Shown here piece after piece: positions 7,438 through 59,784 of a stretch of 64,000 nt of DNA (its first letter is position 1; each line of letters starts with the position of its first letter). The notes below the pieces were generated by a model. The model was given only the letters and a program-made list of their open reading frames with translations. It had not been told where the DNA came from and did no database searches. Source of the stretch: a virus; IMG/VR virus record IMGVR_UViG_3300048926_000477. One strand, 5' to 3'. The position numbers and the translations under genes were made by a program.

Positions 7438-8936
7438 CCGCCGTCGACCTCCGCATCGGCAATACCTGGCACTTCGGCTTGGCGAACTACAGCGTCGTCG
7501 GTGACTCCACCGGCACTGTCGTCGGTGACATGACCGGCGGCGCCGGCACGATGTCCGTCGATTTGCCCGAGACCGTCGACTCGAAGCTCCTCTCGGGCCG
7601 CCCGGTGCTCCTGCGCGACGCTCACATGGGCGAAACCAGCGGGATCCTGCGCACGGGCTCTGGGAACGGCGTCAACGCGACGACGACCGCGGTCTCGCGC
7701 ATCGCGCTGCTCAACGTGAACCGCACCGCCGAAGCCTTCAGCGGCACCTTGCGCGCTGCGCTGCTCTACTACTTCGGCCTCGCCGGAATCACGACCAACG
7801 TCGTCATCGAGTCCAATCTCGCGTCCCGCGCGGTGAACTTCCCCGGCTGGCAGGGCAACGTCCTCGACTACCTCAAGGACCTCTGCGTCGCGCAGCGCAT
7901 GGAGCTCAGCCTGATCGGCGAGAAGTACGTCATCCGACCGATTCGCCGCCGCACGCTCGACCTCTCGAGCGCAGCCGAGCCGTCCTGGTCCACCGACGAG
8001 TCGTCCCTCGCCCAGGCTGTCGAGGTCCTCTGGTACCAGACCAGCCCGGTCCAGAACGGACTCGTCTATCCCGCCGGCGGATGGAGCGAGGAAGTCACCC
8101 CGCTGCAGGTCGACGAAGGAGAGCTCGTCGAGATTGAGCTCTCGCTCGCCCCTGAGGATGACGAAGGCCAAGGCGTCTCCGCCGTCACTGTCCAGCAGCC
8201 GGTGTGTGTCGACAGCGTCTCGCGCACGCACGCCACCTCCTCCGTCTACACGGTCTCCGGCAAGGACGGCCTGCCCATCAAGCCGGCACAGTGGAACGCC
8301 AGCGGCGGCAAGCTCACCGTCGGGCTCAAGGACGGCGGTTCCACCCTCGTCGTCACCATCCAGGGGCCCCGGGGCGTCGAGAACGGCCCCTACTCGATCG
8401 CCATGGCGTCCGGCACCAGCGACCAGTATTCATCCCTGCGTGTGTACGGGTCGCGCATGTACTACAAGCGGAATCTGCTCACGATGCAGACCGGTCTCAG
8501 CGAAGACGTGGCGACCCAAGAGAGTGCACCCCGCGCCGAGAGCCGCTTCATCAACTCGTACGAGAACGCTTGGCGCGCAGCGTCCAACCTCCTGGCGCAG
8601 CACGGCGGCGCACAGATGAGCGTGACCGTGCAGCTCGGCGTGATTGAAGGCACGACGATCGCCCACTCCTTCTTCGGCGGCGACACCGTCAAGGAGGGGC
8701 TGAGCGAGCAGCCCTTCGGCAACGTCGAGGGCGCTCGCCTCCGACACGACGGGACCATGTTCCGCACCCGCTCGGTCACCTCGACCGCCAGCGTCAGCAC
8801 AGCGACGGCGACGCAGGACACCATCTCGCAGGATCTCGCGACCGAGTTCGGCACCCTCACCGCCTCGCAGTGGAACGCGCGCCTGCCCGCAGGCATGACC
8901 GCCTCCCAGTTCAACGCTCGACAGATGAACGGATGA
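7434..8936 (+). CDS. minor tail protein (Tal / baseplate-hub-like)
   Basis: 500 aa; 4-nt overlap with the Dit-like gene; positional call. Confidence 0.45.
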   Translation: MTAVDLRIGNTWHFGLANYSVVGDSTGTVVGDMTGGAGTMSVDLPETVDSKLLSGRPVLLRDAHMGETSGILRTGSGNGVNATTTAVSRIALLNVNRTAEAFSGTLRAALLYYFGLAGITTNVVIESNLASRAVNFPGWQGNVLDYLKDLCVAQRMELSLIGEKYVIRPIRRRTLDLSSAAEPSWSTDESSLAQAVEVLWYQTSPVQNGLVYPAGGWSEEVTPLQVDEGELVEIELSLAPEDDEGQGVSAVTVQQPVCVDSVSRTHATSSVYTVSGKDGLPIKPAQWNASGGKLTVGLKDGGSTLVVTIQGPRGVENGPYSIAMASGTSDQYSSLRVYGSRMYYKRNLLTMQTGLSEDVATQESAPRAESRFINSYENAWRAASNLLAQHGGAQMSVTVQLGVIEGTTIAHSFFGGDTVKEGLSEQPFGNVEGARLRHDGTMFRTRSVTSTASVSTATATQDTISQDLATEFGTLTASQWNARLPAGMTASQFNARQMNG

Positions 8937-11359: not shown

Positions 11360-11393
11360 TCGCCCGAAATTGGGCTTAGACTCCGGCGGCACA

Positions 11394-11987
11394 ATGGCAA
11401 CCACTTCCCGCGGGATTCCGCTCGCTGACGGCGACACGATCGTTAACCCGATCCAGACGCCGCTCAATGCGATGGCGAATGCCCTGGACACTGCCCTCGG
11501 CAACCTCGTCACCGAGCTGGGCCCCGCGATCGGGTGGCGCCGCGCTGGCACGAACGCCGATCGACTCGCTCTCGCCGCACCGGCGCTGGCCCGTGGAGTG
11601 CAGTTCTACTGCACCGACACCGACCGCGAGTGGGAATACAGCGGCTCCGCCTGGTACTGCACGCGGATGCCGTTCACAGACCTGAGCTACGCAACTGGCT
11701 GGAGCACCGTCGCCAATGCCCCGGGGGCCTACGTCCGCATCCGAGGCGGCATCGTCACCATCGGAGGCCGAGTCAGCGGCACCGGCACCGCTGGGACCAC
11801 CATCGCGACCCTCCCCGCCGAAGCACGCCCCGCAAAGGAGCTGACCTTCCAGGTCTACGTCGACTCAGTCAGCGCATGGGGCGCCATGCGCATCGGCACC
11901 GATGGCGCCATCGCCTTCTACAGCAAGACCACCCCGCTCTCCGATGTGCGACTCGACGGAGCCCCCTCCTGGTCGGTGTCCTCGTGA
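11394..11987 (+). CDS. minor tail protein (possible receptor-binding component)
   Basis: 198 aa from ATG 11394 (MATTSRGIPLADGD); the TAGACTCCGGCGGC motif lies 11 nt upstream; the ORF-track extension from 11202 overlaps the fibre gene and is rejected. Confidence 0.45.
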   Translation: MATTSRGIPLADGDTIVNPIQTPLNAMANALDTALGNLVTELGPAIGWRRAGTNADRLALAAPALARGVQFYCTDTDREWEYSGSAWYCTRMPFTDLSYATGWSTVANAPGAYVRIRGGIVTIGGRVSGTGTAGTTIATLPAEARPAKELTFQVYVDSVSAWGAMRIGTDGAIAFYSKTTPLSDVRLDGAPSWSVSS

Positions 11988-18592: not shown

Positions 18593-18984
18593 GCTGCAGC
18601 TCCTTCGCTGGCGCGGCGCACGCGCCACTTGACACTGGACCAGGGCTGACCGAGGAGGCGGGCGAGGAAGCCGCTGCTGGTGCCCTGCTTGACGATGTGC
18701 GCGGTCAGGCGCGGGTTGGTCTCCCGCGCATCCTTCAGCGCGAACTCCTCGAGGATGAGCTCGAGAGTGTCGGGGTTGAAGCGGCCGCCGGTGTGGTCGG
18801 TCTTGTCGAACCTCTGACGGGCGTAGTGCTTCGAGACGCCGGCGATCTGGGTGATGTGCATGATCGACCACACGCCGTGCTCGACCAAGAGCTTCACGGC
18901 CTCGTCGCGCTGGAACTCGTCGAAGCCCGCGTTGCGCCTGTAGATGTCCAGGGCCTCCCGGACAGCCTTTCGGTTGTCAGCCAT
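18589..18984 (-). CDS. HTH DNA-binding protein
   Basis: 131 aa; MHITQIAGVSKHYARQRF is a helix-turn-helix. Confidence 0.45.
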   Translation of the reverse strand: MADNRKAVREALDIYRRNAGFDEFQRDEAVKLLVEHGVWSIMHITQIAGVSKHYARQRFDKTDHTGGRFNPDTLELILEEFALKDARETNPRLTAHIVKQGTSSGFLARLLGQPWSSVKWRVRRASEGAAA

Positions 18985-21598
18985 TGGTGGTCACTCCTTT
19001 GAGTCGGACGACATCGACGCCGCCTTCGGTCTTCCTGTCCACGCGACCCTGCGCGACGAGTTCTTGGATGAGGTCTTCGACTTCCCTGCGCCTGTTTTTG
19101 AACCTCGGGAGCCTGTGAATGGCGGCGAGGGGCATGAATCCGCCGGAGCCGATGACGGCCTGCTCGATCGCGTTCACCTCTCGGGTGCGAAGGGACTCGT
19201 CTGTCCACTCCACGAGGAGCATGATGTTGGTCGCCCACTCCTCCGCCTGCTCGATCGCGACGAGCATGTCGTCCATCGTGATGTTGAGGCGCCCCTCGCT
19301 GAGTGCGACGAGGGCGGCGCAGCGCATGGTGGTTTCCCGGAGGCGGCGGAAGGTCGGCTTAAGGCGGTCGACGTAGTGGGGCCTGCTGTTGGCCAGGGAG
19401 GTCAGCGCGCGCTTGAACTCGCCGTGACGGGCAATGACCTCGCGCGGGATGACCATGCGGTTCGGCTCGAGGGAGTCGGGGCGCGAGACGCGCTGCAGCG
19501 CGCTGGCGAACTCGCTGGCCCACTGCTGATACATCATCGAGCCGGATGCGACCGCTTCGGTGTCCTGGTCGAGCTCGCTGGCGTCGAGGTAGTCATCGTC
19601 GTCATCGTCCTCTGTGGGAAGCTCGCCAATCGCCCAGACGAAGCGGTTGAGGAAGCCGGACTCCCAGTCTTCCGGCGCCATCACATCGGTCATGCCGCGG
19701 GGCGTCCCCATGAAGTGCGCCGTCATGAACGCGCGCGCGCTCTTGCCCGAGATGTCCTTCTTCGTGGCTCGGTAGACCGCGCCCACGTCGCCGTCATAGA
19801 CATCGGTGATGATGCCGGGCATCTCCGAGTAGGGGCCCTGGATCTTCTTCCAGACCTGGATCTTGGTGTGCGCCTCGTCCATGTGGAACCACGTTGGTTT
19901 GCGGTCCTTGGCGATCAGGGTCTCGACGAGCGACTCGGGCGTGTGGTTGCCGCCGATGTCGGGGGTCTCCTCGAGGAGGAAGTAGGCCTTGAAGATGTGC
20001 TTGGCGACCCGCAGGGCCTCGGTCTTGCCGGAGCCGGTGGTACCGACGATGCCTTGGTAGAGGTTCAGGGGGCGGTCATTCTGGCCGGGGCGCGGGAGGA
20101 CCGCGGCGGGGCTGAAGATGACGGACAGCACGGTCCACCGGTTCATGCGGTAGTAGGGCAGGTTCACGGTGTCGAACGTCAGCCGCGCCCAGTCGATCAT
20201 CCGGCTGCCGAACCAGTCGGCGGCCAGCGCGCGTGAGCGCTCAGCCTCCGTCATGAAGCTGACTCGCTCAGGGCCGGCGTAGTTCGGGCGCTCGTCGGCG
20301 GGTGCTGCGGCCACGGTGTCACCGGTGGAGGTTGCAGCCTCGCCGCGTGCCGCCTCGAGCTCACGCCAAAGCTGCTCGTAGGTGATGCACTTCGAATGCT
20401 CGTCGACGTACTGGATGCCGTCGAAGGTGATGCCAGCGAGGCGCGCTGCCGCGGAGTGCCAGACGATCGTCGCGGCCTCCTGGTCGGTGAAGCCCGATGC
20501 CAGGAGCGCCGCGAGCAGCTGACGCCTTCTCCCCCACAGGGCGGCGTCCGTGCCCGCATCGGGGCGCGTCGACCACACCTGATAGAACATCTCCGATCCG
20601 ATCGAAGGGAAGCCCTTGTCGAGCGGGAAGCCGTTCCAGGGAAGGAGCTCTGGGAGGTCGGGCTCCGGCGGCGCCTCGTACTGCCCAGCCGTCTGCTTCT
20701 GCGCGGACTCCCACTGCTCGACGATCTTGTCGGTGCCCCAGGATGGGTAGGTGGGCACGTACTCGAGGAGCAGCTGGAGCGCCTGGTCGTCGTTCAGTGC
20801 GTAAGCGTTCGAGCGCGCGATCCGGGCGAGCCAGCATGCGGCCGCGAAGACGGTGTCGTGCCAGCCGGCGCCGGGAGCCCAGACCTCAGGGAGTCCCTGC
20901 AGGTTCGACACGATCGCGCGCAGCTTGCGCGCCTCCGTCGACGAGGCTACGTCCGGGATGTCACCGTCCCACTGCTGGCTCTGGTGCTCGTGCGAGTTGG
21001 GGTCGACGCGGAGGTAGTCGATCCACGCCTGCGGCAGGTACTCGAGGTCCGTGATGTGCGGCGGCTCTGTCATCGGCTCGCCGTCGGCGTCATACCAGAC
21101 GTACATCGCGCCGTCAGCGTCTGGGTTCACCGAAGGTGCTACCAGCGAGTACCGGTGACGGTACTGGATCACGTCGATGTCGGGCGCGGCCTTGCCGTCC
21201 AGGTCGACCGGCTCCGGGAGCAGGAAGAAGTGCTGTCGGCTCGGGCTGTCGGCGCCACGGCAGGTCGACGAGGGCGTGGCCGGCAGAGGGCCGAGCTTCG
21301 CCTCCAGCTCGGCGAGCTGCTCGGCGCCGTGCTTCGTGCCATAGTCGTCCACGTCGATGCGGACCTCGAGCGGGCCTGCGCGGAGGGCGGTGTTGGCGGT
21401 GCTCGGATCTTGCGTGTGCCATTCGTCAGTCTCGCGGTCGTACCAGCGGAAGCCGCTCTTGACCCACTCTGCGACCTTCTCGGGAGTGACGCTGCCCTGT
21501 GCGCCCGTCGCTCCGGCGGGGACCGGGCGCTTGCCCTTCACCGGGATGGGCAGGAACCCTCGCTCGAGGTAGAAGGGGGCGACGCTGGAGTACGTCAT
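18977..21598 (-). CDS. bifunctional primase-polymerase (PrimPol N-terminal domain) fused to a P-loop SF3/D5-type helicase
   Basis: 873 aa; N-terminal FLPIPVKGKRP is primpol-like; Walker A GIVGTTGSGKTEALRVAK in the C-terminal half. Confidence 0.65.
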   Translation of the reverse strand: MTYSSVAPFYLERGFLPIPVKGKRPVPAGATGAQGSVTPEKVAEWVKSGFRWYDRETDEWHTQDPSTANTALRAGPLEVRIDVDDYGTKHGAEQLAELEAKLGPLPATPSSTCRGADSPSRQHFFLLPEPVDLDGKAAPDIDVIQYRHRYSLVAPSVNPDADGAMYVWYDADGEPMTEPPHITDLEYLPQAWIDYLRVDPNSHEHQSQQWDGDIPDVASSTEARKLRAIVSNLQGLPEVWAPGAGWHDTVFAAACWLARIARSNAYALNDDQALQLLLEYVPTYPSWGTDKIVEQWESAQKQTAGQYEAPPEPDLPELLPWNGFPLDKGFPSIGSEMFYQVWSTRPDAGTDAALWGRRRQLLAALLASGFTDQEAATIVWHSAAARLAGITFDGIQYVDEHSKCITYEQLWRELEAARGEAATSTGDTVAAAPADERPNYAGPERVSFMTEAERSRALAADWFGSRMIDWARLTFDTVNLPYYRMNRWTVLSVIFSPAAVLPRPGQNDRPLNLYQGIVGTTGSGKTEALRVAKHIFKAYFLLEETPDIGGNHTPESLVETLIAKDRKPTWFHMDEAHTKIQVWKKIQGPYSEMPGIITDVYDGDVGAVYRATKKDISGKSARAFMTAHFMGTPRGMTDVMAPEDWESGFLNRFVWAIGELPTEDDDDDDYLDASELDQDTEAVASGSMMYQQWASEFASALQRVSRPDSLEPNRMVIPREVIARHGEFKRALTSLANSRPHYVDRLKPTFRRLRETTMRCAALVALSEGRLNITMDDMLVAIEQAEEWATNIMLLVEWTDESLRTREVNAIEQAVIGSGGFMPLAAIHRLPRFKNRRREVEDLIQELVAQGRVDRKTEGGVDVVRLKGVTTNG

Positions 21599-21661: not shown

Positions 21662-21737
21662 TGGCTCCCCGGGCAGGACTCGAACCTGCGACCAACGGCT
21701 TAACAGGCCGCCGCTCTGCCAACTGAGCTACCGGGGA
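21662..21737 (-). tRNA. tRNA-Asn (anticodon GTT), CCA encoded
   Basis: Manual fold: acceptor tccccgg/ccgggga, D arm gctc-agttggca-gagc, anticodon stem gcggc/gccgt with loop ctGTTaa, T arm gcagg-ttcgagt-cctgc, discriminator g, CCA; 76 nt. Confidence 0.7.
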
Positions 21738-27374: not shown

Positions 27375-28595
27375 TCAGCCCTTCACGCAGAGGATTGTGT
27401 CGAGCTTCTGCACGACTTCCACCAGATCGCTCTCGGCGGCGATGACGCTGTCGAGGTCCTTGTAAGCGAGCGAGATCTCGTCGATCACGCCCGCATCGGT
27501 GCGCGCCTCGATGCCCTTCATGGTGCGCTCGACATCCTCGACGGTGAACCGGCGCTTGGCTTCGCCGCGGCTCATCTTGCGGCCGGCGCCGTGGCTGGCC
27601 GACTGGAAGGAGGCTTCGTTGCCGAGTCCACGCACGATGTACGAGCCGGTCGCCATGCTGCCGGGGATGAGCGCCAGCTCCCCCTTCTTCGCGCTGATCG
27701 CGCCCTTGCGGGTGACGATCATCTGTCGACCGTCGATGATCTCCTCGGCGACGTAGTTGTGGTGGCAGTTGATCTCCTCGTCGTAGTCGACGAAGTAGCG
27801 CCCCTCGAGGTGGTCCGACAGCTCACGCTTGACGAGCTCCATCATGATCGTGCGCGAGCGCATCGCGTACTCCTGGGCCCAGTGCAGGTCGTGGAGGTAC
27901 TCGTTCATCTCGGGCGTGCCCTTGTAGAAGAGGGAGAGCTCCTGCAGGTGCTTCGGAAGGTCCTGGTTCACCTCGAGCGACTTGGCCTTCTCGATGTGGC
28001 GGGTGCCGAGCACGTTTCCGATGCCGCGGGAGCCGGAGTGCAGGGTGATCCAGATGCGCTTCTGCGCGTCGGTCGTCAGCTCGATGAAGTGGTTGCCGCC
28101 GCCAAGGCTGCCCATCTGCCGCCAGGCGCGCTCCTCCATCGCCCCCACGGGCGCGAACAGGTCGAGGAAGCGTTCCATGAAGCGGTGGTGATTGTTGGCC
28201 CATGCGTGCCCGAGGAGCTTGCTCACGCGCACGTCGCTCGCGTGCATGTTGTTGCCGACGGGAATGGCGTCCTGGAACCGCTGGCGAAGCATCTTCAGAT
28301 CGCGCTCGTCCAGGTCGTCGAGCACGAGGTTCGTGCGCACGGCGTTCACACCGCAACCGATGTCGACGCCGACGGCGGCCGGCGCGAGCGCCTGCTCCAT
28401 CGCGATCACCGAGCCGACGGTGGCGCCGTTGCCCCAGTGCACGTCGGGCATGACCCTCAGGCCGTACAGGCCCGGCAGCTGGGAGACGCTGCGCAGCTGG
28501 TCGAGCGCGCTGTGCTCGATCTCGTGCTCGTGCGCCCAGGCGAGGACCGGGGCTGCAGTGCCGGAGAGGGTGGTGGGGAACTCGTGGTTGGTCAT
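27375..28595 (-). CDS. rtcB: RtcB-family RNA ligase (3'-phosphate/5'-OH RNA-splicing ligase)
   Basis: 406 aa; signature blocks VGVDIGCG, GGGNHFIEL, HSGSRGIGN, NCHHNY and SASHGAGR (nucleotidyl-His region). Confidence 0.85.
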   Translation of the reverse strand: MTNHEFPTTLSGTAAPVLAWAHEHEIEHSALDQLRSVSQLPGLYGLRVMPDVHWGNGATVGSVIAMEQALAPAAVGVDIGCGVNAVRTNLVLDDLDERDLKMLRQRFQDAIPVGNNMHASDVRVSKLLGHAWANNHHRFMERFLDLFAPVGAMEERAWRQMGSLGGGNHFIELTTDAQKRIWITLHSGSRGIGNVLGTRHIEKAKSLEVNQDLPKHLQELSLFYKGTPEMNEYLHDLHWAQEYAMRSRTIMMELVKRELSDHLEGRYFVDYDEEINCHHNYVAEEIIDGRQMIVTRKGAISAKKGELALIPGSMATGSYIVRGLGNEASFQSASHGAGRKMSRGEAKRRFTVEDVERTMKGIEARTDAGVIDEISLAYKDLDSVIAAESDLVEVVQKLDTILCVKG

Positions 28596-39099: not shown

Positions 39100-39129
39100 A
39101 CCCTAGGGGCGGTGTGTGCTGTGAGTCAA
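39100..39129 (-). promoter_or_regulatory. candidate early leftward sigma-A-type promoter (-35 TTGACT, 18-nt spacer, -10 TAGGGT)
   Basis: On the - strand: TTGACT (+39129..39124), an 18-nt spacer, then TAGGGT (+39105..39100); flanked by two palindromic TTATCTAGATAA-type sites. Confidence 0.45.
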
Positions 39130-39132
39130 CAC

Positions 39133-39146
39133 TTTATCTAGATAAT
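39133..39146. repeat. palindromic operator-like site TTTATCTAGATAAT abutting the promoter -35
   Basis: Perfect palindrome TTATCTAGATAA; same family as above. Confidence 0.5.
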
Positions 39147-39149
39147 CTG

Positions 39150-39610
39150 AGCGGTCGTGATGTGCACAGGCCGCTGTGGAGGGCGTGGACGGGGCTCGAC
39201 GTTGTGCGAATCGTCAATCGGCCGTATTTGGCTGAGTCTGGAGAGGCCGTCCGTATTTGTTCGTGCTTAAGGCCGTATTCAGTTGCTTATCCCCGTATGT
39301 ATGCTTACGACTTCGTATAAAGTATCGCGAACAAATAAGCGAATCCGTAAGCATGCTTATGCCGATATGCAAGTGCTTATGGCGATATGCACGGCTAAAT
39401 ACGGGGAGTCATTTCCCATGGATAAAGGGAAGTAGGGGTGTAGAGGTGTGGGGGTGTGTGTGTGGTGTGTGTAGTTGTATATTCACAAACATTCGTACAT
39501 GGGGGTACGGCGTGCGGCGTTTGGGGGCTCAAAAATCGGGCCTGAAAACGTCGCTGTGGGAACCTACAAACACACGGGGCCTGTTGAGTTGTTCTGAGGG
39601 CGGGGTGGCC
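39150..39610. other. AT-rich non-coding region with iterons and tandem repeats (candidate replication origin / regulatory hub)
   Basis: No credible ORF and GC far below the genome mean; CCGTATTY in 4 direct copies plus 1 inverted copy (39230-39406); 19-bp tandem tgcttatgCcgatatgca / tgcttatgGcgatatgca (39352-39392); 9-bp inverted repeat atgcttacg / cgtaagcat; GT-rich tract 39425-39480. Confidence 0.5.
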
Positions 39611-41447: not shown

Positions 41448-41692
41448 GGAACAAGTCTACCGTGAGTGCTTAGGTTTAGCTAGATAAATATGTAGTGTGG
41501 GGGAAGTGAGAACCATACTCAACACACGACGGGGAGGGTGGGAGCGGGGCAAGCGACACGAGCGCGCGGATTGGCGACCGCGGGAAACCACTCAGATTTT
41601 CAGAGCGCGGGCGAAGGGCGCGGAGGGTGGGGCGCCCCCACGCGCAGATTTTTCTTCTCCCCCAAATCGGCCATTCCGCTACCATCGGCCCC

Positions 41693-42782: not shown

Positions 42783-43721
42783 ATGTTCCTGCTCATCCTC
42801 GCGATCGCGCTCGCGCTCGTCGGCCTGGTGGCCGCCGCGGCCGCGTTCTTCTCGCGCAACGTCAGATTCGCCGCGGTGATCGTCGCGATCATCGCCTTCA
42901 TCGGTGGCGGCGTGTCGCTGTTCTCCGCCACGTTCTACGCCAACGGCGTCGGCGAGGCCAAGGTGCTCGTCAACAGCGTCGACAAGACCGTCGTCGGCAC
43001 CATCGAGGAGCCCGGTTCGGGCTTCAAGGCGCCCTGGATCGACTTCGTCGACTTCGACTTGTTCTCCCAGGAGCTCCTCTACGCCGGCTCCGGTGACTCC
43101 ACCCCTTCGTACTCCGGCGGCTCGGTCTCGGGCGCTGAGGTGACCGTCTCGGTCGGCGGCGCGAACGGCGGCTCCACTCAGGCCAACGTCGACATCTCGG
43201 TGACCTACAGCGTCGACGCGGATGCCGTCGAGGCGATCTACGAGGGCTACCGCTCGCAGGAGCGCTTCACCAAGCAGGTCATCGAGAAGACGATCCTCTC
43301 GACGATCCGCAGCGTCCCCTCGGCCTACTCCGCAACCGACTTCCGTGGCGCATCGCGCACCGAGGCCGCCGACATCATCACGAAGCAGCTGAACGAGAAG
43401 CTGCAGCCCCTCGGCGTCAACGTCGACTTCGTGAACATCCAGAACGTCACCTACCCCGACGAGGTGGAGGCCGCGCTGAAGGACGTGGAGGTGGCGAACC
43501 AGAAGCAGCAGAAGGCCCAGGCTGACCTGCGCGCCGCGGAGACCGCCGCCCAGCAGAAGGTCGTCGAGGCCCAGGCCGAGTCGGACGCCAACGGCATCCT
43601 GAGCGCCAGCCTCACCCCGCAGGTGCTCGAGCAGCGCCGCATCGACGCCCTGCTGAAGGCCGCCGAGTCCGGCAGCCTCATCGTCGACGGCGGTGGCGGC
43701 GGGATCCTCATCCAGAAGTAA
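42783..43721 (+). CDS. SPFH / band-7 (stomatin-prohibitin-flotillin-HflK/C) domain membrane protein
   Basis: 312 aa; N-terminal 2 TM segments, then a typical SPFH core (ADIITKQLNEKLQPLGVNVDFVNIQNVTYPDEVEAALKDVEVANQ) and a C-terminal coiled coil. Confidence 0.65.
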   Translation: MFLLILAIALALVGLVAAAAAFFSRNVRFAAVIVAIIAFIGGGVSLFSATFYANGVGEAKVLVNSVDKTVVGTIEEPGSGFKAPWIDFVDFDLFSQELLYAGSGDSTPSYSGGSVSGAEVTVSVGGANGGSTQANVDISVTYSVDADAVEAIYEGYRSQERFTKQVIEKTILSTIRSVPSAYSATDFRGASRTEAADIITKQLNEKLQPLGVNVDFVNIQNVTYPDEVEAALKDVEVANQKQQKAQADLRAAETAAQQKVVEAQAESDANGILSASLTPQVLEQRRIDALLKAAESGSLIVDGGGGGILIQK

Positions 43722-52479: not shown

Positions 52480-52748
52480 CCCAGCAAAAGAAGCCCGGCC
52501 CCACCTACAAGCTCGTGGCGTCCCGGCGCGGCTACATCCGACGCGCGGGTGGACTCGAGGTGAGCGAGGCGCGCCTCGCGGACCTTCCCGAGCAGCCGCG
52601 GTCATTCGCCGAAGTGACTGGTACGTATGAGCATGTCGCGGCCGCCGCAGTGAAGGCGAACAACGTCCAGGAGCGCGCGAGCTACCTCGACTATCTCTAC
52701 TTCCCGGAGCTCGTCGACGAGAAGGAGCTCGCTCATGGGTCCGTTTAG
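52476..52748 (+). CDS. hypothetical protein
   Basis: 90 aa. Confidence 0.4.
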   Translation: MTQQKKPGPTYKLVASRRGYIRRAGGLEVSEARLADLPEQPRSFAEVTGTYEHVAAAAVKANNVQERASYLDYLYFPELVDEKELAHGSV

Positions 52749-52828
52749 CGCGGGCGAGCAGCTCCTCCTGGACCGGAGCCTTAAGGTCGAGTTCGTGCGA
52801 GAACTCGCCCCTGACCAGGCGATCGTGT

Positions 52829-53170
52829 CTATGGCTGGATCAACTCACGTTGTCCCCCTGCTGGCTCTTTCGCGCTCCGAAGGATAGGGCAGGCCTCCGA
52901 CACGAGGTGGGCGTCCCCGTTGGCGCCCGCCTTGCATCGGTGTGTTTCGAGGAGGAAGTCGATCGCCTGTGATGCGACATCCGCCCCGATCTCCCGCCGA
53001 AACGCGTTGGCCAGGATGTTCAGGTCGAACTCATAGCTGAAGCCTCGACCCCAGATGAATGCGCTGCCGTTGCGCACTTCCACCTGAACACTCCTGCCAC
53101 CGTCGATGTCTTTCAGCACCGTCGCCATCGTCAAAGTCCCCACAATCTCGGCGCGTCCTTGTAGCGCCAC
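52829..53170 (-). CDS. hypothetical protein on the opposite strand inside the lower-GC island
   Basis: 113 aa; the only - strand gene within the + strand arm; local drop in GC. Confidence 0.35.
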   Translation of the reverse strand: MALQGRAEIVGTLTMATVLKDIDGGRSVQVEVRNGSAFIWGRGFSYEFDLNILANAFRREIGADVASQAIDFLLETHRCKAGANGDAHLVSEACPILRSAKEPAGGQRELIQP

Positions 53171-53250
53171 CTAGTTCCGAGCGTAAGCTATGTCCGAGCA
53201 CGGTATAACCGGCTTCAGACATTCGAACACAAATACGATCCGGAGCTGTC

Positions 53251-54675
53251 ATGGAAACCGTTACGGATAAGGCCAGCCGTGCGCTGCCCACCTCATCCAT
53301 CAGTACCGACAAGGAATACTTCGCCACCCGCTACAAGCAGGGTGGTCGCACCGTTTACTCCCTGGCCCAGAGCCCAACGCAGGTCACCGGCCTGGTCAAG
53401 CGTCCTGACCCTAGCGCGTCGAACCCGGGAAACCGCCGAATCCGCCCGGACCACGCGAGCGCCTTCGCGCGCTACCTCATCGAGAACGACAATTGGGTCA
53501 TCCCGGGCATCATCCTGCGCGCGCCGAGCATCTTCAGCTTCGAGGAGGACGCCGACGCGGTTGGCTTCCAGACGGGCGTGATGCGCTACGCCGAGCGCAA
53601 CCAGGGCGATATCCAGATACTCGACGGCCAGCACCGAATCCTCGGCTTCCACATGGCTCACGACATGCTGGACGCTCGCATGGACAAGGCGCGGTCGGCC
53701 CGAGCCACCGCGCGCCGCGTGCAGGACGACAACGCAATCAAGGCCGCCGAGGCCGAGATCCGCCAGCTTGACGCCGTGCGCGAGCGCCTCGCGACCGAGC
53801 GCTTCACGGTCGAGATCCACGTAACCGACGACCTGCAGGCGTACCGCCAGATGTTCTTCGATATCGCGGAGAACGCGCTCGGCATCACCGCCTCCGTCAA
53901 GGCGCGCTTCGATGCGCGGAAGGTCGTCAACCGCGCGCTGCCGACGGTGCTCGAGCAATCCCTCCTTGAGGGGCGAGTGGACCTCGAAGCCGACCGCATC
54001 CCGCCGACGAGCACCTACTACCTCGCCGCGCGACACGTCATGGAGACGCTGCGGGTGCTGACCGTCGGCTACGACGGCCGTGTGAGCAAGCGGATGGACA
54101 AGGAGATGAGCGAGGTGGAGATCGCACGCCGCGGCGTGGAGTTCTTCGACGGCCTCGTCGCTGCCTTCCCCGTTCTCACCACGCTCAAGGCCGGTCAGAT
54201 CACGCCCGAGCAGATCCGCAAGAGCTCGCTCATGGGCTCGCCGGCCTTCATCCGCGTGCTCGCCGGTGTCTTCTACGAGCTGACCACGAACCACTCCTAC
54301 ACGCCGAGCATGGTGTTCGAGTTCTTCGGCCGCCTGGCGAAGCACACCAACGCTTCTGCGCACGCCAACTCGATCTGGCGCAAGTACGCTGCTCCCGAGG
54401 CGTTCCACGAGGGCGCCTGGGGCCCGAACCAGCGCCGCCAGGACGCCAAGGGCCTCGTCATGACGATCGCCGACTGGGCGATCGACAAGGAGCCCTTCGT
54501 CGACGCCGAGGCCGAGCCGGCGCCGGTGATCGAAGAGGAAGAGATCGACGAGGACGCACTGATCGACTTCGCCATGGGCCACAACACGAAGCCCCTGGAC
54601 GTGGAGCTGCGCAACGAGGCCGAGGATATCGCCGCTGCGTCGAAAGCCCGCGTGAAGGCCAAGACCACGTCGTAG
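53251..54675 (+). CDS. DGQHR-domain (DndB-like, ParB/Srx-fold) protein
   Basis: 474 aa; exact motif QILDGQHRILG with an upstream FQTGVMRYAERNQGD block, as in DndB/DGQHR proteins; SD ggag; followed by a strong terminator. Confidence 0.65.
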   Translation: METVTDKASRALPTSSISTDKEYFATRYKQGGRTVYSLAQSPTQVTGLVKRPDPSASNPGNRRIRPDHASAFARYLIENDNWVIPGIILRAPSIFSFEEDADAVGFQTGVMRYAERNQGDIQILDGQHRILGFHMAHDMLDARMDKARSARATARRVQDDNAIKAAEAEIRQLDAVRERLATERFTVEIHVTDDLQAYRQMFFDIAENALGITASVKARFDARKVVNRALPTVLEQSLLEGRVDLEADRIPPTSTYYLAARHVMETLRVLTVGYDGRVSKRMDKEMSEVEIARRGVEFFDGLVAAFPVLTTLKAGQITPEQIRKSSLMGSPAFIRVLAGVFYELTTNHSYTPSMVFEFFGRLAKHTNASAHANSIWRKYAAPEAFHEGAWGPNQRRQDAKGLVMTIADWAIDKEPFVDAEAEPAPVIEEEEIDEDALIDFAMGHNTKPLDVELRNEAEDIAAASKARVKAKTTS

Positions 54676-54721
54676 ACTGCGCTCCACCCTGCCAGGCCTC
54701 CTTCCCGAGGCCCGATTGACA

Positions 54722-54750
54722 CCCCTCCGGGATTCACACCCCCGGAGGGG
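54722..54750 (+). terminator. intrinsic terminator hairpin cccctccggg-N9-cccggagggg
   Basis: Perfect 10-bp stem then a T-rich tgtcgttgtt; lies between the DGQHR gene and TerS. Confidence 0.6.
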
Positions 54751-54779
54751 TGTCGTTGTTCGACCTAGACTCCGCCGCC

Positions 54780-55292
54780 ATGTACGGGGAGATCAAGCTC
54801 GGCAAGAACAGGTCGATCGACGACGCGCTGCTCGAGGCCGCCGTCATGGACCTGTCCGCCGAGGAGACCTCCGCTCGGCTCAACGGCGTGCTCTCCCCCG
54901 CGCGCGTGATGGTCCGATGGAAGGAGCTCCTGCGCTCGAACACCTGGCTCGAGGCAGCAGAGCGTGAGCAGGCCCTCCTTCGCGTCCTCCAGAAGAACCT
55001 CGTCGATCTCCAGAACGCCGAGCTCATGGGGGCGGAGGGCTTCAAGATCCAGCTGAGCTACATCCGCCAGCTCTTCGAGCGCCTCGACAAGCGCCAGGCC
55101 GCCACCGAGGAGCAGCTGAACACCTACAACGAGAACGTCGGCCGCCAGCTCGGACGCGTCGTCGACATGACGCTCAAGTACATGCAGGGCGCCCTCCGCG
55201 AAGTCATCGAACCTGCCAAGTGGGACGAGCTCGTGCAAGAAGCGCTCGTCATGGCCCAGGTCGAGATCGCGAAGAAGCAGGTCGAGGCCTGA
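54780..55292 (+). CDS. terminase small subunit (positional call)
   Basis: ATG 54780 immediately follows CTAGACTCCGCCGCC; 170 aa, helical and charged; lies directly upstream of TerL. Confidence 0.45.
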   Translation: MYGEIKLGKNRSIDDALLEAAVMDLSAEETSARLNGVLSPARVMVRWKELLRSNTWLEAAEREQALLRVLQKNLVDLQNAELMGAEGFKIQLSYIRQLFERLDKRQAATEEQLNTYNENVGRQLGRVVDMTLKYMQGALREVIEPAKWDELVQEALVMAQVEIAKKQVEA

Positions 55293-55293
55293 C

Positions 55294-56991
55294 GTGATGC
55301 TCGACTCCCGCATTTTCGATGCCGCGATGGACGAGCTCGCGCAGAAGTCCAAGAAGGCGCTGTACCAGCGCGACTTCGAGGCCTGGCTCGCCGACGTGCT
55401 GCACGAGCGCATGTACCGGAAGATGGCCGAGGTCAGCCATGACGTGCTTTTCGGTAAGCACCCGCGCACCCTCGTCAAGTCGGCCAACGGTACCGGCAAG
55501 ACTCACTCGGCCGCTCGCTGGGTCATGTGGTGGGTGACCGCCTTCCCGAAGGAGGAGTCGCTCGCGATCCTCACAGCCCCGACTCTAAAGCAGGTGCGTC
55601 TCGGCGTGCTCGCATACCTCAAGGAGTCGTACGGCTACGTCAAGACTCACGCCCAGTCGCAGGGCAAGCAGATGCCCTGGCCAGGCTGGATCAGTGAGCA
55701 GGACGAGTGGCGCTACTCGACCCTCGGAGGTAACCAGACACTCGCCGTCGCGCGCGTGCCCGGCGCATCCGACGCGATCTCGACCTTCCAGGGTCTCCGC
55801 AAGACCGGTGGTCGCAACTTCATCTCGCTCGATGAGGCCGGCGGTGTCTCGCGTGACATCTTCACCGCGATCGACGCGCTCATGACCTCGGGCGACGCAC
55901 GCATGGGCGGGATCGGGAACCCCGACCGCCGCGGCACCGCGTTTTACGACGCCTTCACCGATCCGCGTCTGGCGCGCGAGTATCAGCTGCACACGATCTC
56001 CGCCTACGACACCCCGAACCTCACCGGCGAGGTCGTCTACAAGGACGACCCCGAGAAGGAGCGGATGCTCCGAAACGGTCTCATCTCCGCGCGCTGGGTG
56101 TTCGAGCGCGAGCGCATGTGGAAGACCGGCGGCGAGGTCGTCTACGACGAGGCGGTCGAAGCAGAGCGCAACCTCACCGGGCGCCCCGACGGCCGCTTCA
56201 AGGCCAAGGTCGGCGGGCAGTTCCCCGACGAGGACGACCACACATTCTTCCCCGAGGAGCCGATCACGGCCGCCCGTCACCGCGAGCTCACCGACGAGCA
56301 GATTGCGACCTCGCCGATCGTCCTCGGGGTCGACCTCGCAACCATGGGTACTGACGAGACCGTCGTGATGATGAACAAGGGCGGCCGATGCCGCGTGTTC
56401 GACGGCCGCGTGAAGTACGACGACGGCGGCGAGATCCGCGAGACCAGCGGAACCTGGGCCAAGGAGGACGAGCTCTCCAACGCCCGCCGCGTGCACGCCG
56501 TGGCCACCTACCTCGGCGCGACAGAGGTGCGCCTGGACGCCGGCGGCATCGGCGCCGGCATCGCGACGAACCTCATGCGACTCGACGAGTTCGCCGGCAA
56601 GCAGTACATGGTCATCCGCGTCGACGGCTCCAAGGCGTCAGCCGACAGCGCGCGCTGGGCGAACGCGCGCTCCCAGAACCACGACCAGCTCCGCGAGCTC
56701 CTCGCCGAGGGCGTCCTCGACATCGACTACGACGACGACGTGCTGAAGGAGCAGCTGCTCGCCGTCACCTACGACCTGAACAAGCGCGGCGCCGTGCAGA
56801 TCACCCCGAAGAAGGACATGCGCACCGAGATGCACGGCTCGCCTGACCGTCTCGACGCCCTCATCTACGCCGTCATCAACACCGACGCGCTCTCCGACCC
56901 ATTGAACCAGCTCGAGCGCGGCGATCGCGTGTTCGTCGATCCGTGGGAGCTACTGGCGATGTCTCGCGCGGGCGCCGGCATGCCTTTGTGA
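55294..56991 (+). CDS. terminase large subunit
   Basis: 565 aa; ATPase motif VKSANGTGKTHSAARW; Walker B-type FISLDEAGG; C-terminal nuclease-like acidic residues. Confidence 0.8.
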   Translation: MMLDSRIFDAAMDELAQKSKKALYQRDFEAWLADVLHERMYRKMAEVSHDVLFGKHPRTLVKSANGTGKTHSAARWVMWWVTAFPKEESLAILTAPTLKQVRLGVLAYLKESYGYVKTHAQSQGKQMPWPGWISEQDEWRYSTLGGNQTLAVARVPGASDAISTFQGLRKTGGRNFISLDEAGGVSRDIFTAIDALMTSGDARMGGIGNPDRRGTAFYDAFTDPRLAREYQLHTISAYDTPNLTGEVVYKDDPEKERMLRNGLISARWVFERERMWKTGGEVVYDEAVEAERNLTGRPDGRFKAKVGGQFPDEDDHTFFPEEPITAARHRELTDEQIATSPIVLGVDLATMGTDETVVMMNKGGRCRVFDGRVKYDDGGEIRETSGTWAKEDELSNARRVHAVATYLGATEVRLDAGGIGAGIATNLMRLDEFAGKQYMVIRVDGSKASADSARWANARSQNHDQLRELLAEGVLDIDYDDDVLKEQLLAVTYDLNKRGAVQITPKKDMRTEMHGSPDRLDALIYAVINTDALSDPLNQLERGDRVFVDPWELLAMSRAGAGMPL

Positions 56992-57039
56992 GTGGTTAGC
57001 CCCCGGTTTACCCCCGTTTCAACCCTAGACTCCGCCGCC

Positions 57040-58617
57040 ATGACCAGTTCCGGCTCCATCCTGCTCGAGAGCATGTACAACTCCGCGGCTCTCGCGTTCG
57101 AGCAGGCTGACGCCAGTCAGAAGCCCGCGATCCTCGAGATGATGGACGGGCTGCGCATGATGCTGCAGCGCGAAGACCAGGGTTGGACGCCGTTCTACGG
57201 CGGCACCGACGAAGGATTCCAGCTCGCCATCACCCTGGACCAGCTGAAGGGCTGGGAGAAGGACCTCTCGGAGCTCGCACTCGGCGCCGCGTGGATGCGC
57301 CGCGGCCTCATGCTGCACTGCGGCTACATCTGGAACGGCGGCATCCGCTACTCCCCTCTCAGCGAGGGCGGCTCCCAGGGCATCAAGAACGTCAAGAAGT
57401 TCTTCGACGACGCAGAGAACCAGCAGAACTTCTTCGGCCCCGACGCGCGCCGCCGGCGCCAGTCGCGCCTGTACTACTCCGGCATCGTCCTCTACCTCGG
57501 CAACGAGAAGACGAAGAAGCTCACGCCGATCCCCCTCCACCAGATCACCGACCAGATCCTCGCGCCCGACGGCACTGGCGAGATCTGGGCCTACAAGCGC
57601 GAGTGGTCCGAGCGCAATCTCAAGACCGCGAAGGTGATCGAGAAGAAGGAGTGGATCTTCACGCACCGGGCGATCGGGCACCGCGTGGACAAGATCAAGG
57701 AGGCCGGCGCTGAAGAGACATGGACGCCGGTGTCGCAGACCGAGCGCATCTTCGACATGCACGCCAACCGCCTCGAGGGCATGGCCTACGGCGTCCCCGA
57801 CGCCCTCGCTGCGGCGTCCTGGCACAAGATCGCCAAGAACGCGTTCCTCGACGGCATCACCATGACCCAGGCCCTCGCCTCCTTCGCCTTCCAGGTGACC
57901 AACCGCAGCGCAAAGGGCGGCGAGAACGCGGCGCTCCAGTTCGCGACACCCCAGGGCGCCGGGCAGACGATCGTCGGCGCCAGCGAGCTCCGCTCCGTGA
58001 ACTCCGCCGGCAGCAGCTACGACTTCCAGGGCCTCACGCCCGTCCTGGCGATCATGGCGACATCCCTCGACGTGTCGGTGATCCACCTCTCCGCCTCCCC
58101 CGGCGACGCCGGCTCCAGCTACTCCGCCGCCGAGACCATGGACCTGCCCACGCGGCTCGCCATGGGCACGCGCCGGGACATGCACATCGAGTTCGACCGC
58201 CAGGTGCTCGAGTGGATGGGCCAGAAGGATCCTGAGGTGTTCTTCGCGCCGTTCGAGAGCGGCACCGAGACCTACCGCAACATCCAGGCCCTCATCCTCG
58301 CCGCGCAGGCCGGCGCCTACTCGATCGAGCAGCTGCGCGTCATGATCGACGACCTCCTCGCGCTGCCCAACGGCAAGCCGCCCACGGGCGCACTCGAGTT
58401 CAACAACCAGAAGACCCTGGAGATCCAAGCGCGCATCGCGGCGAAGAACGCGCCGAAGCCTGCCGCCAGCGACGACTCCGACGGCGACAAGTCCTCCGTC
58501 GCCTCCCCGGCACAGGGTCGCGGCAACGGCAGTGGCGGGCAGGACGGCGGCAACGCGTCGAACGACCTGCGTGACAAGGCGGAGCAATTTCTGGTCTCCG
58601 GCGACCTTCGGCCCTAA
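57040..58617 (+). CDS. portal protein
   Basis: ATG 57040 immediately follows CTAGACTCCGCCGCC; 525 aa; position after TerL; acidic C-terminus. Confidence 0.65.
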   Translation: MTSSGSILLESMYNSAALAFEQADASQKPAILEMMDGLRMMLQREDQGWTPFYGGTDEGFQLAITLDQLKGWEKDLSELALGAAWMRRGLMLHCGYIWNGGIRYSPLSEGGSQGIKNVKKFFDDAENQQNFFGPDARRRRQSRLYYSGIVLYLGNEKTKKLTPIPLHQITDQILAPDGTGEIWAYKREWSERNLKTAKVIEKKEWIFTHRAIGHRVDKIKEAGAEETWTPVSQTERIFDMHANRLEGMAYGVPDALAAASWHKIAKNAFLDGITMTQALASFAFQVTNRSAKGGENAALQFATPQGAGQTIVGASELRSVNSAGSSYDFQGLTPVLAIMATSLDVSVIHLSASPGDAGSSYSAAETMDLPTRLAMGTRRDMHIEFDRQVLEWMGQKDPEVFFAPFESGTETYRNIQALILAAQAGAYSIEQLRVMIDDLLALPNGKPPTGALEFNNQKTLEIQARIAAKNAPKPAASDDSDGDKSSVASPAQGRGNGSGGQDGGNASNDLRDKAEQFLVSGDLRP

Positions 58618-58659
58618 ACCCCCCAAGGTCCGAAAATCTCGCCCCTAGACTCCGGCGCC

Positions 58660-59784
58660 ATGCCAACGGACAACTCCACCGCCGGGACCCAGCTGCGCGT
58701 TCGCGAAGCCGGGTACCGCCAGGGCACCCGCGCGGTCGTCCCCGAGGGCAACGGCCAGAAGATCAAGGTGCGCCTCATGGGCTGGGAGCCCGGCACCACG
58801 GTCGTCGAGGGCTCGAGTGCCGACTATCCGGTGGACCGCATCGTCCGCGACTTCCCCGAGTCGTTCCCCGTCGGCACGCGCATGCGCGCCAACCACGACG
58901 GCTTCTGCGAGGCCGGCGGCGACATCCGCCGCGTCATGGCCAAGACCACCTCCGATCCGTGGGAGGAGGAGGACGGGATGTACGCCTGGGCGGTCGCCCG
59001 CGAAGGCGACGCCAGCGAGTTCCTCCGCCAGTTCGCCGATGTCATCGGCACCTCCGTCTCCGTGGCCGCAGAGGTCGAGATGGAAGCAGCCGTCGACAGC
59101 AACGGCAAGCCGATCATCGACGAGAACAACCAGCCCGTCATGAAGCCGCGTCTCAGCGAGCGCGGCGCCCAGATCGTCGAGCGATTCCTCCCCATGAGCG
59201 AGTCGCCGTACAACGCCGTCGACTTCGTCGAGGCACCCGGCGCCGACGGCGCCATCGTCGCTCTCGCCACCGAGAGCGCCAAGGAGCTGGTCGAGAAGAC
59301 CATGCTCCGCGAGGCATCGAGCTTCGCAATCGATCTCGCCGGCAAGCGCGAGAAGACTTCCGCGGCAAACCGGCCCGGAACCACCCAACAGGAGGACCAC
59401 ATGGATCCGAAGGTGATCGAGGCAGCCGTTCGCAGCGTGCTCGCCGAGGCACTCGCGCCCATCAACACCTTCCTCGCGGACGAGGGCGCCCGTCGCCAGG
59501 CCGAGGCGGAAGCCCAGGCCGGTGCGGACGGAGTGAAGGAGGCCCGCGAGGCCGCCGTCACCGCAGTCGAGGCCGTCAAGGCCGCGAAGCTCCCCGAGTC
59601 CGTCGAGGTCGACCTGCTCGCGCAGCTCAAGGAGGGCGCGGACATCAGTAAGGACCTCGCCTTCGCGCAGAAGGTCCTGGAGGCCAAGACCTCCACGAGC
59701 GAGTCGACCGACTCGTTCATCACCCACGAGTCGGCCGCCGGCGACGGCGAGTCCTTCTCCCTCGGTCTCGGAGGTAGCCGCTAA
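58660..59784 (+). CDS. capsid maturation protease / scaffolding-like protein (helical Ala/Glu-rich C-terminal half)
   Basis: ATG 58660 immediately follows CTAGACTCCGGCGCC; C-terminal EAEAQAGADGVKEAREAAVTAVEAVKAAK is coiled-coil; lies between portal and capsid genes. Confidence 0.45.
   Translation: MPTDNSTAGTQLRVREAGYRQGTRAVVPEGNGQKIKVRLMGWEPGTTVVEGSSADYPVDRIVRDFPESFPVGTRMRANHDGFCEAGGDIRRVMAKTTSDPWEEEDGMYAWAVAREGDASEFLRQFADVIGTSVSVAAEVEMEAAVDSNGKPIIDENNQPVMKPRLSERGAQIVERFLPMSESPYNAVDFVEAPGADGAIVALATESAKELVEKTMLREASSFAIDLAGKREKTSAANRPGTTQQEDHMDPKVIEAAVRSVLAEALAPINTFLADEGARRQAEAEAQAGADGVKEAREAAVTAVEAVKAAKLPESVEVDLLAQLKEGADISKDLAFAQKVLEAKTSTSESTDSFITHESAAGDGESFSLGLGGSR

Follow-up and report, generated by a model that had tools for sequence, protein, structure and literature searches.

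A DndB-Family DGQHR Protein at the Early/Late Boundary of an Uncultured Microbacteriaceae Phage Lineage: A Candidate Nucleotide-Gated Regulator

Organization of the Locus

We analysed a 64,000-nucleotide (nt) stretch of viral DNA from the IMG/VR record IMGVR_UViG_3300048926_000477, referred to as the window, and concentrated on a gene at 53251–54675 (plus strand) that encodes a 474-amino-acid (aa) protein of the DGQHR/DndB family (core residues ~20–414; Pfam PF14072). The window has a GC content of 67% and comes from a siphophage-type genome. On the 5′ side of the DGQHR gene, Pfam identified genes for an RNase_T exonuclease, an NT5C nucleotidase, a deoxynucleoside monophosphate (dNMP) kinase and a glutaredoxin, while the packaging genes follow on its 3′ side. 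The first-pass annotation had placed the gene between nucleotide metabolism and the small terminase subunit (TerS), and the Pfam assignments confirm nucleotide metabolism for the upstream genes.

The first packaging gene (54780–55292, plus strand) encodes a TerS-like protein of 170 aa with a predicted N-terminal helix-turn-helix (HTH) and long coiled-coil helices, and its end abuts the start of the large terminase subunit (TerL), a typical arrangement for TerS. We set its start at the ATG at 54780; a GTG at 54750 falls inside a hairpin described below. An AlphaFold2 (AF2) model was of low confidence (predicted local distance difference test, pLDDT, 64) and displayed the N-terminal HTH and the coiled coil. 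Because the protein has no Pfam, PHROG or PDB sequence match, its identification as TerS relies on position and architecture; it is 100% identical to a TerS-like protein recorded on a 287.6-kb contig. TerL (565 aa, 55294–56991, plus strand; PHROG 2, E = 2.9e-28) and the portal protein (57040–58617, plus strand; PHROG 10963, E = 4.8e-74) come next.

Upstream, a small divergent gene (52829–53128, minus strand) encodes a protein of 99 aa. The only minus-strand gene noted earlier in this arm, at 52829–53170, is thus real as judged from its coding-type frame GC and its homologues, but its start moves from the GTG at 53170 to the ATG at 53128, because the gene call of its relative P0135, whose product is 95% identical, also gives 99 aa. 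The protein has a conserved N-terminal domain of ~45–55 residues (…KDIDGGRSV…GRGFSYEFD…) and no Pfam, PHROG or PADLOC match. For comparison, the neighbourhoods of relatives of the DGQHR gene were examined at 3 loci from a gene-position index, on 29 viral contigs and on 41 genome contigs (cited below by L numbers). At least 22 of 30 phage-clade loci have a homologue of the small gene directly upstream of the DGQHR gene, on the other strand. Convergent with the small gene, and overlapping its 3′ end by 59 nt, is an open reading frame (ORF) of 50 aa (52735–52887, plus strand), the last of the early/nucleotide-metabolism block. Its existence had been left as a possibility; with a frame GC pattern compatible with coding and tblastn homologues at six loci (L004, L007, L008, L015, L016 and L021; E 5e-15 to 2e-4; four distinct sequences), it is probably a real gene.

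The region had also been described as an island of low GC that included the DGQHR gene. Low GC (0.58–0.61, against a window mean of 0.671 with a standard deviation of 0.027) is in fact restricted to ~52800–53250, that is, to the small gene and the adjoining intergenic region. The DGQHR ORF has a composition typical of the genome (GC 0.66; GC at third codon positions, GC3, 0.89).

Expression Signals

The small gene and the DGQHR gene diverge from an intergenic region of 122 nt (53129–53250; 55% GC). A conserved block, GAGCGTAAGCTAT (53179–53191), includes TAAGCT, a −10-like hexamer; a second, CAGACATTCGAACACAAATACGA (53216–53238), is followed by GGAG 6 nt ahead of the DGQHR ATG. Both blocks are conserved in L004 and L002, so that the DGQHR gene possesses a conserved leader of ~55 nt and a Shine-Dalgarno sequence. 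Neither the leader motif CAGACATTCGAACA nor GAGCGTAAGCTAT is repeated beyond chance within the window.

Behind the stop codon stands a terminator-like GC hairpin (54718–54731/54741–54754, plus strand) with a perfect 14-bp stem and a 9-nt loop, and the intergenic region that holds it folds at −46.7 kcal/mol (z = −4.7). The earlier description of a strong terminator is supported by the stem and the folding energy, but the hairpin has no U-tract and was not called by a consensus terminator scan. Strong hairpins of unrelated sequence follow the DGQHR stop codon in 28 of 31 phage-clade loci, and we predict that the hairpin closes the DGQHR transcription unit.

A different signal precedes the packaging genes. 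The sequence CCTAGACTCCGCCGCCATG (54764–54782, plus strand) carries a −10-like TAGACT 8 nt before the TerS-like ATG and no Shine-Dalgarno sequence. A near-identical 17-mer, TAGACTCCGSCGCCATG, occurs at 54766–54782, 57026–57042 and 58646–58662, where it leads to the start codons at 54780 (TerS-like gene), 57040 (portal gene, a start that we corrected by means of this 17-mer) and 58660. TAGACT and ATG are 8 nt apart each time, and none of the three starts has a Shine-Dalgarno sequence. The minus arm opens with a gene headed by TAGACT-N6-ATG, related TAGACT copies stand before other genes at 41459 (minus strand), 2141, 11377, 15195, 42047 and 51838, and the motif is kept before the TerS-like gene in L001, L002, L004, L005, L007, L011 and L014. 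From what is generally known of actinobacterial promoters, the TAGACT motifs are probably −10 elements, putative promoters of leaderless mRNAs. The leader and GGAG of the DGQHR gene, set against these leaderless starts, put it in a separate expression class.

Family Assignment and Predicted Structure

The DGQHR ORF carries the motif QILDGQHRILG, with D125 to R129 encoded at 53623–53637. It matched the Pfam DndB family PF14072 over residues 25–349 with 92.8 bits against a cutoff of 29.1 (E = 2.9e-26), scored 57.6 for the DGQHR domain TIGR03187, just below the cutoff of 58.85, and reached 24.7 bits for the DndB equivalog TIGR03233, whose cutoff is 328. In an alignment of 40 family sequences, G126, Q127, H128 and R129 were invariant and D125 was at least 90% conserved; QxFxDIAxN, FD and NR were likewise invariant. 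The window protein is devoid of cysteine, as are 37 of the 40 relatives.

An AF2 model, the kind of check that the first-pass annotation had proposed for this family assignment, was confident (pLDDT 87.7). It consists of an N-terminal beta/alpha domain with the DGQHR motif, a long helical hairpin (residues 127–182) and a helical C-terminal domain, and its fold matches are to DUF262/GmrSD-N-type and "DNA-sulfur modification-associated" folds. Motif and profile place the protein in the DndB/DGQHR branch of the ParB/Srx-fold NTPases, as first proposed, with a putative ParB/Srx-like fold of its N-terminal domain, and not among the orthologues of DndB. Pfam, NCBIfam and PADLOC detected no nuclease motif or domain in it, and its sole PADLOC match was a weak one to DndB (35 bits). 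In SspE, GmrSD and BrxU, a DUF262 ParB-like NTPase is combined with a nuclease; the phage protein differs from them in lacking HNH and DUF1524 domains, in having DGQHR rather than DGQQR, and in the absence of a restriction architecture.

The name-giving members of the family belong to DNA-modification systems, and a dNMP kinase and a 5′-nucleotidase are encoded just upstream, which would suit a DpdB- or DndB-like helper of a modification enzyme supplied by the host or by the ~6 kb of genome beyond the window. A Pfam scan of the 39 window ORFs found no DndA/C/D/E, Dpd, Que, PAPS-reductase or methyltransferase domains, in line with what had been read from the window at first, and no TGT or DUF328 genes. 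The ~40 phage-clade loci are equally free of DndA/C/D/E, DpdA/C, Que, PAPS-reductase and methyltransferase genes, and modification partners were not found in ~75 related loci. Moreover, the missing ~6 kb falls between head and tail genes, and the equivalog score is far under its cutoff. A helper role is thus very improbable, and the DGQHR protein here very probably has no connection with DNA sulphur or deazaguanine modification. Its resemblance to DpdB, the ATPase partner of DpdA in 7-deazaguanine modification, lies in the (here putative) ParB-fold N-terminal domain and helical C-terminal domain, the homodimer (proposed for the phage protein) and the DGQ(Q/H)R motif at the nucleotide site (PMC10164549). 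It differs from DpdB in having DGQHR in place of DGQQR, in the lack of DpdA, DpdC and queuosine genes nearby, and in its other genomic role.

Membership of a ParB-fold family could also point to partition of a plasmid prophage, with the protein as a ParB analogue on centromere-like repeats. No integrase was detected in the window, and the 8-mer CGTATTTG, which occurs three times in the window against 0.22 expected, is confined to an iteron cluster at 39.2 kb, with two copies, and the DGQHR leader, with one (53230–53237, minus strand). The cluster is not linked to the DGQHR gene. As both regions are AT-rich, this coincidence is weak and serves as a lead only. In contrast to ParB, the DGQHR protein has no ParBc or HTH Pfam match and no ParB C-terminal dimerisation domain; there is no ParA-type gene among the scanned ORFs, and several relatives are integrated in complete chromosomes. 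We regard a partition function as hardly credible.

The iteron cluster lies in an origin-like region (39100–39500) that is ORF-free to ~39600 and where GC falls to 0.50. It contains four 18-mers of the TGCTTATGCCGATATGCA type, about nine CCGTATTTG/CCGTATGTA/CGATATGCA units, repeats of CTTTATCTAGATRATCYGA and an imperfect inverted repeat of 65 nt (39251–39315/39340–39404).

Conservation in Phages and Prophages

A protein search returned more than 465 relatives. The best 120 are 43–97% identical to the query, most of them 45–64%; the named ones among these 120 are nearly all from Microbacterium or Agromyces, and many lie on contigs of 56–62 kb. The hosts of the phage/prophage clade are Microbacterium, Agromyces, Leifsonia, Frigoribacterium and Pseudolysinimonas, and the clade includes prophages in complete chromosomes (CP094528.1, NZ_CP173721.1). 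Its gene order is constant: small minus-strand gene, DGQHR gene, TerS-like gene, TerL, portal. The DGQHR gene occupied the same site in every clade locus examined (~40, down to 43% identity), and a TerS-like gene co-occurred with it in 25 of 32 loci, a number that rose when the search was iterated.

Identity across loci ranges from 45 to 68% for the DGQHR protein and from 39 to 68% for the early RNase_T protein. At six loci (L017, L018, L019, L023, L027 and L032), the DGQHR protein is still 45–49% identical even where identity has fallen to ~25% for TerL and portal and capsid are just as distant. This conservation suggests a stable backbone that includes the DGQHR gene, with structural modules swapped downstream. 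The distance from the DGQHR gene to the TerS-like gene is usually 50–160 nt; in L009, L012, L017, L032 and L040, extra DNA of 350 nt to 3.2 kb precedes the TerS-like gene (for example, L040 10356–13532, L012 9377–10126 and L009 9443–9943). The true accessory-gene insertion point seems, from these comparisons, to lie downstream of the DGQHR gene and not at it. The first-pass annotation had seen the DGQHR gene itself as a moron or accessory insertion. It does have the cassette of a moron, here a putative promoter region, leader, Shine-Dalgarno sequence, ORF and hairpin, but neither sporadic presence nor atypical composition: the gene is found at the same site in all clade loci, has a genome-typical GC3 and is kept through the exchange of TerL, portal and capsid genes. 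That proposal therefore has to be given up.

In a second phage group of lower GC (L028, L029), a DGQHR homologue without the C-terminal tail described below adjoins the packaging genes. In L028, the DGQHR gene is divergent from an operon of NrdH-like, TerS-like, TerL and portal genes, with which it shares a 164-nt intergenic region. The L028 genome has ~55% GC, and its DGQHR gene (7872–9218) sits within a 1-kb stretch of 62% GC, which suggests recent acquisition from a high-GC source.

Among 50,697 cultured-phage records, megablast and tblastn found no homologue at E ≤ 1e-5; the looser matches, up to E ≤ 10, were insignificant and confined to Vibrio and Pseudomonas phages, and the Vibrio phage gene lies among ligase and RdgC genes, away from any terminase. 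No PHROG matches the DGQHR protein, and in the literature we found no paper tying DndB-like proteins to terminase neighbourhoods. The gene had been called no standard phage core gene, which agrees with the lack of any earlier annotation as such. Its distribution marks it as a conserved part of the backbone in an uncultured Microbacteriaceae siphophage/prophage lineage.

Constant synteny with TerS had been named beforehand as a sign of an ordinary packaging protein. The synteny is there: in the phage clade the gene is invariably next to the TerS-like, TerL and portal genes, and it adjoins them in the tailless L028 and L029 phages too. A packaging accessory would bind or nick DNA near pac or cos, next to terS, and aid the start or finish of terminase action. 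Some ParB/Srx-fold proteins nick DNA, according to a statement cited in PMC12839542. DndB and DpdB are without reported endonuclease activity (PMC10164549), and no nuclease motif or domain was detected in the phage protein. The terminator-like hairpin and a separate putative promoter set its gene apart from the packaging operon. The protein is kept where TerL has diverged to ~25% identity and the type of the TerS-like protein changes, and its C-terminal tails track neither. HK97-like phages reportedly encode HNH proteins immediately upstream of terS, which offers an analogy: a non-structural gene fixed at this place across a phage group. Unlike those, the DGQHR protein has an unrelated fold and unrelated motifs, and its gene is split from terS by the hairpin and putative promoter. 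Cellular relatives have no terminase context, and since they point to transcription regulation and defence rather than to packaging, synteny by itself does not make this a packaging protein. Such a role appears unlikely to us.

The C-Terminal Tail

Residues 415–474 of the window protein (54493–54672, plus strand) form an acidic tail, made up of a Pro-rich linker, an acidic stretch and a C-terminal helix, with 16 Asp/Glu against 6 Lys/Arg residues. All terminase-linked clade proteins bear 34–62 extra C-terminal residues of this build, whereas cellular relatives stop no more than 13 residues past a conserved xWLxx, with the exception of L039 (25 residues). An exhaustive profile search gave 199 representatives at E ≤ 1e-30, and about 10 of the best 150 align past profile position ~440, where the tail lies.

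Five tail types can be distinguished, and their distribution tracks the tree of the core. In this tree the terminase-linked proteins cluster together; in a second tree that included sigma-fusion cores, the tailless Microbacteriaceae proteins L037, L039 and L041 fell within the terminase-linked group, which may therefore not be monophyletic.

Cellular Relatives and Sigma-70 Fusions

Tailless relatives (29–46% identity) were found in Micromonospora, Acidimicrobiia, Solirubrobacterales, Chloroflexota, Dormiibacterota and acI Nanopelagicales, and none of them is near a terminase. Their neighbours include Type I HsdM/HsdR restriction-modification genes (L043), a TIR effector (L057), an SNF2 helicase (L071) and some housekeeping genes.

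Seven relatives of 743–900 aa combine the DGQHR core with a Pro-rich linker and a complete sigma-70 factor (regions 1.2, 2, 3 and 4). They match the family profile at E 1e-57 to 1e-82 and represent 7 clusters among 1.84e9 representatives; the named ones, from Cellulomonas and Promicromonospora, are annotated merely as sigma factors. In three of four Micrococcales loci (L076 8001–18259, L077 8001–18504 and L078 4282–12351), the fusion gene is directly upstream of a PglW-like NERD-kinase gene, and in L076 a PglX-type methyltransferase and PglY come after it, as in Pgl/BREX-2. In the fourth (L075, Promicromonospora, 8001–11818), the fusion is followed by a standalone DndB-like paralogue within an island of DUF499/DUF1156, Dcm-Vsr and SIR2 genes. 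ParB-fold-Sigma70 fusions bind ATP, and a DndB-like protein binds ATP or GTP, according to a 2025 preprint (10.1101/2025.10.10.680097). The DGQHR-sigma gene is not mentioned in the portions of a 2026 BREX survey that were consulted.

Fusions and phage protein share a homologous core (27–33% identity), the same core end followed by a Pro-rich linker, and the same host order. They differ in what follows: in the fusions a full sigma factor in defence loci (Pgl/BREX-2 or the SIR2 island), in the phage protein a 60-residue acidic/helical tail ahead of packaging genes.

These contexts suggest an anti-defence or defence factor. In the first version, a gene captured from a host island would act as a decoy or dominant-negative of host DGQHR regulators (Pgl/BREX-2, restriction-modification), or its product would coat incoming DNA; in the second, the prophage would express it together with the small gene as an exclusion system. 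The closest cellular relatives lie by a Type I restriction-modification system (L043), TIR (L057), SNF2 (L071) and the SIR2/DUF499/Dcm-Vsr island (L075); sigma fusions head Pgl loci, and the fusion beside a standalone paralogue in L075 suggests cooperation of both forms. The anatomy of the cassette, with a putative promoter, gene and terminator, would fit as well, and so would the occurrence of several members as prophages integrated into complete chromosomes. Genes for defence or anti-defence tend to be scattered in their distribution and to be exchanged between close relatives, whereas the DGQHR gene is universal in the clade, fixed in site and conserved like early genes. In addition, the rarity of the sigma fusions makes them an unlikely universal target, and PADLOC gave only its weak DndB match. 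We consider a role in defence or anti-defence possible but somewhat unlikely.

Proposed Function

The interpretation that we favour, tentatively, is an ATP/GTP-gated, DndB-type DNA-binding regulator that acts in cis at the early/late boundary. The DGQHR gene and its divergent 99-aa partner form a two-gene module between the early nucleotide-metabolism genes and the late packaging and head genes. By analogy with its characterised homologues, the protein would act as DndB does, as a homodimer with ATP or GTP held in the DGQHR pocket, and nucleotide binding or hydrolysis would toggle DNA binding. Its targets, which we infer more than any other part of the model, could be its own divergent promoter, the adjacent leaderless late promoter, or both. 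The acidic tail could contact RNA polymerase or sigma or auto-inhibit DNA binding, and would thereby be a surrogate of the sigma module, joined to the core at the same point as in the cellular relatives.

Precedent exists in both characterised relatives: DndB, as a dimer, represses the promoter from which it is itself expressed (PMC4507180), and DpdB is a dimeric ParB-fold ATPase with a DGQQR motif at the nucleotide site (PMC10164549). Sigma-70 fusions sit at the head of Pgl loci, the place expected for a regulator. The DGQHR gene is probably a transcription unit of its own, as its divergent region, leader, GGAG and hairpin indicate, and its site before the late operon has been kept through swaps of TerL, portal and capsid. 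In the second phage group, the L028 gene also keeps this site, in a divergent orientation that would suit a regulator, and the absence of modification partners from the window and the ~75 related loci also speaks for regulation.

Like DndB, the dnd regulator of S. enterica and S. lividans, the phage protein has PF14072, DGQHR and a two-domain core of ~400 residues, and its gene has its own (here putative) promoter region directly before an operon. The likeness that we propose, to a dimeric, nucleotide-modulated DNA-binding regulator, follows DndB as described in PMC4507180 and in the account of Xia et al. 2019 given by PMC10164549. Apart from the equivalog score and the absence of dndA/C/D/E, the phage protein differs from DndB in its acidic C-terminal tail, its phage-borne place beside the terminase and its pairing with a small divergent gene.

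Several observations weigh against such a regulator, the main gap being the absence of a demonstrable operator. TACG-N10-CGTA, the operator of Salmonella DndB (PMC4507180), has 0 matches in the window. Among 29 upstream regions, the best word, TCCGACA, was only borderline enriched (Bonferroni 0.08), and GAAC/GTTC palindromes, considered as a candidate operator, were not supported by k-mer enrichment. Cys29, which is important in Salmonella DndB, has no counterpart here. The TAGACT promoters look like −10 elements of the usual host kind and might work without a phage factor. Beyond following the core tree, tail types co-vary with no feature that was measured, TerS and TerL types included. Finally, the fusion cores form a sister clade on a separate branch, 27–33% identical to the phage protein, so that the argument from the sigma fusions is indirect.

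A more novel proposal is that the DGQHR protein and its divergent partner might be a hitherto unrecognised nucleotide-gated licensing switch. It would either couple late transcription or packaging to the nucleotide or DNA state of the infected cell, or serve as a decoy against host DGQHR-sigma regulators and so disarm Pgl/BREX-2 control and that of neighbouring defence islands. This we regard as unlikely.

Other Features of the Window

Tail and lysis genes occupy 1–15.5 kb of the window. A minus-strand replication arm (15.9–41.4 kb) with Prim-Pol/DUF3987, AAA_24, SNF2 helicase and RtcB genes follows, and from 41.6 to 64 kb early genes on the plus strand run into TerL, portal and capsid. The final ORF ends on the very last base (64000) and the ends show no terminal duplication, so the window is a slice of a somewhat larger genome; its nearest relatives have genomes of ~70 kb, and the ~6 kb outside it is the segment between head and tail genes mentioned above. 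The portal protein shares no more than 37% identity with any counterpart in cultured phages, and its matches are dominated by phages of Clavibacter, Microbacterium and Arthrobacter. No integrase-like ORF was detected in the 64-kb window, though close relatives are integrated in complete chromosomes.

In the replication arm, an 873-aa fusion of Prim-Pol and DUF3987 (18977–21598, minus strand) is probably the replicative primase/helicase of the phage. The same arm holds a full-length RtcB RNA ligase (27375–28595, minus strand; Pfam E = 2.8e-109) and a tRNA-Asn(GTT) gene (21662–21737, minus strand); a tRNA was the sole match of an Rfam scan. RtcB and the tRNA together suggest tRNA repair or replacement that counters host anticodon nucleases. 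The early genes include one for an SPFH/Band 7 family protein (42783–43721, plus strand; Pfam E = 5e-22), an unusual phage cargo.

Significance

Orphan DndB/DGQHR proteins are routinely annotated as "DNA sulfur modification protein DndB" despite the absence of a Dnd system, and the Microbacterium and Agromyces members described here are no exception. Neither the fold and motif, nor the precedent of a regulator, nor the architecture of the sigma-70 fusions is new in itself. What is new is a clade specific to phages, whose gene keeps one position beside a partner gene and whose protein can be recognised by its C-terminal tail, within a wider subfamily that is tied to sigma-70 factors heading Pgl/BREX-2 loci. 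Together these offer a testable hypothesis for the orphans, namely nucleotide-gated control of transcription, and inducible prophages such as those of Agromyces larvae (CP094528.1, ~1.95–1.97 Mb) and Microbacterium sp. M (NZ_CP173721.1, ~2.54–2.56 Mb) may provide an experimental entry.

Little is understood of how actinobacterial phages control their late genes, and the DGQHR protein may be a new regulator of their early-to-late switch. Were the licensing switch to exist in either version, orphan DndB-like proteins as a class would serve as sensors coupled to transcription, both in phages and in defence loci, and not as modification factors; as an anti-defence decoy, the protein would reveal a regulatory layer of Pgl/BREX-2.

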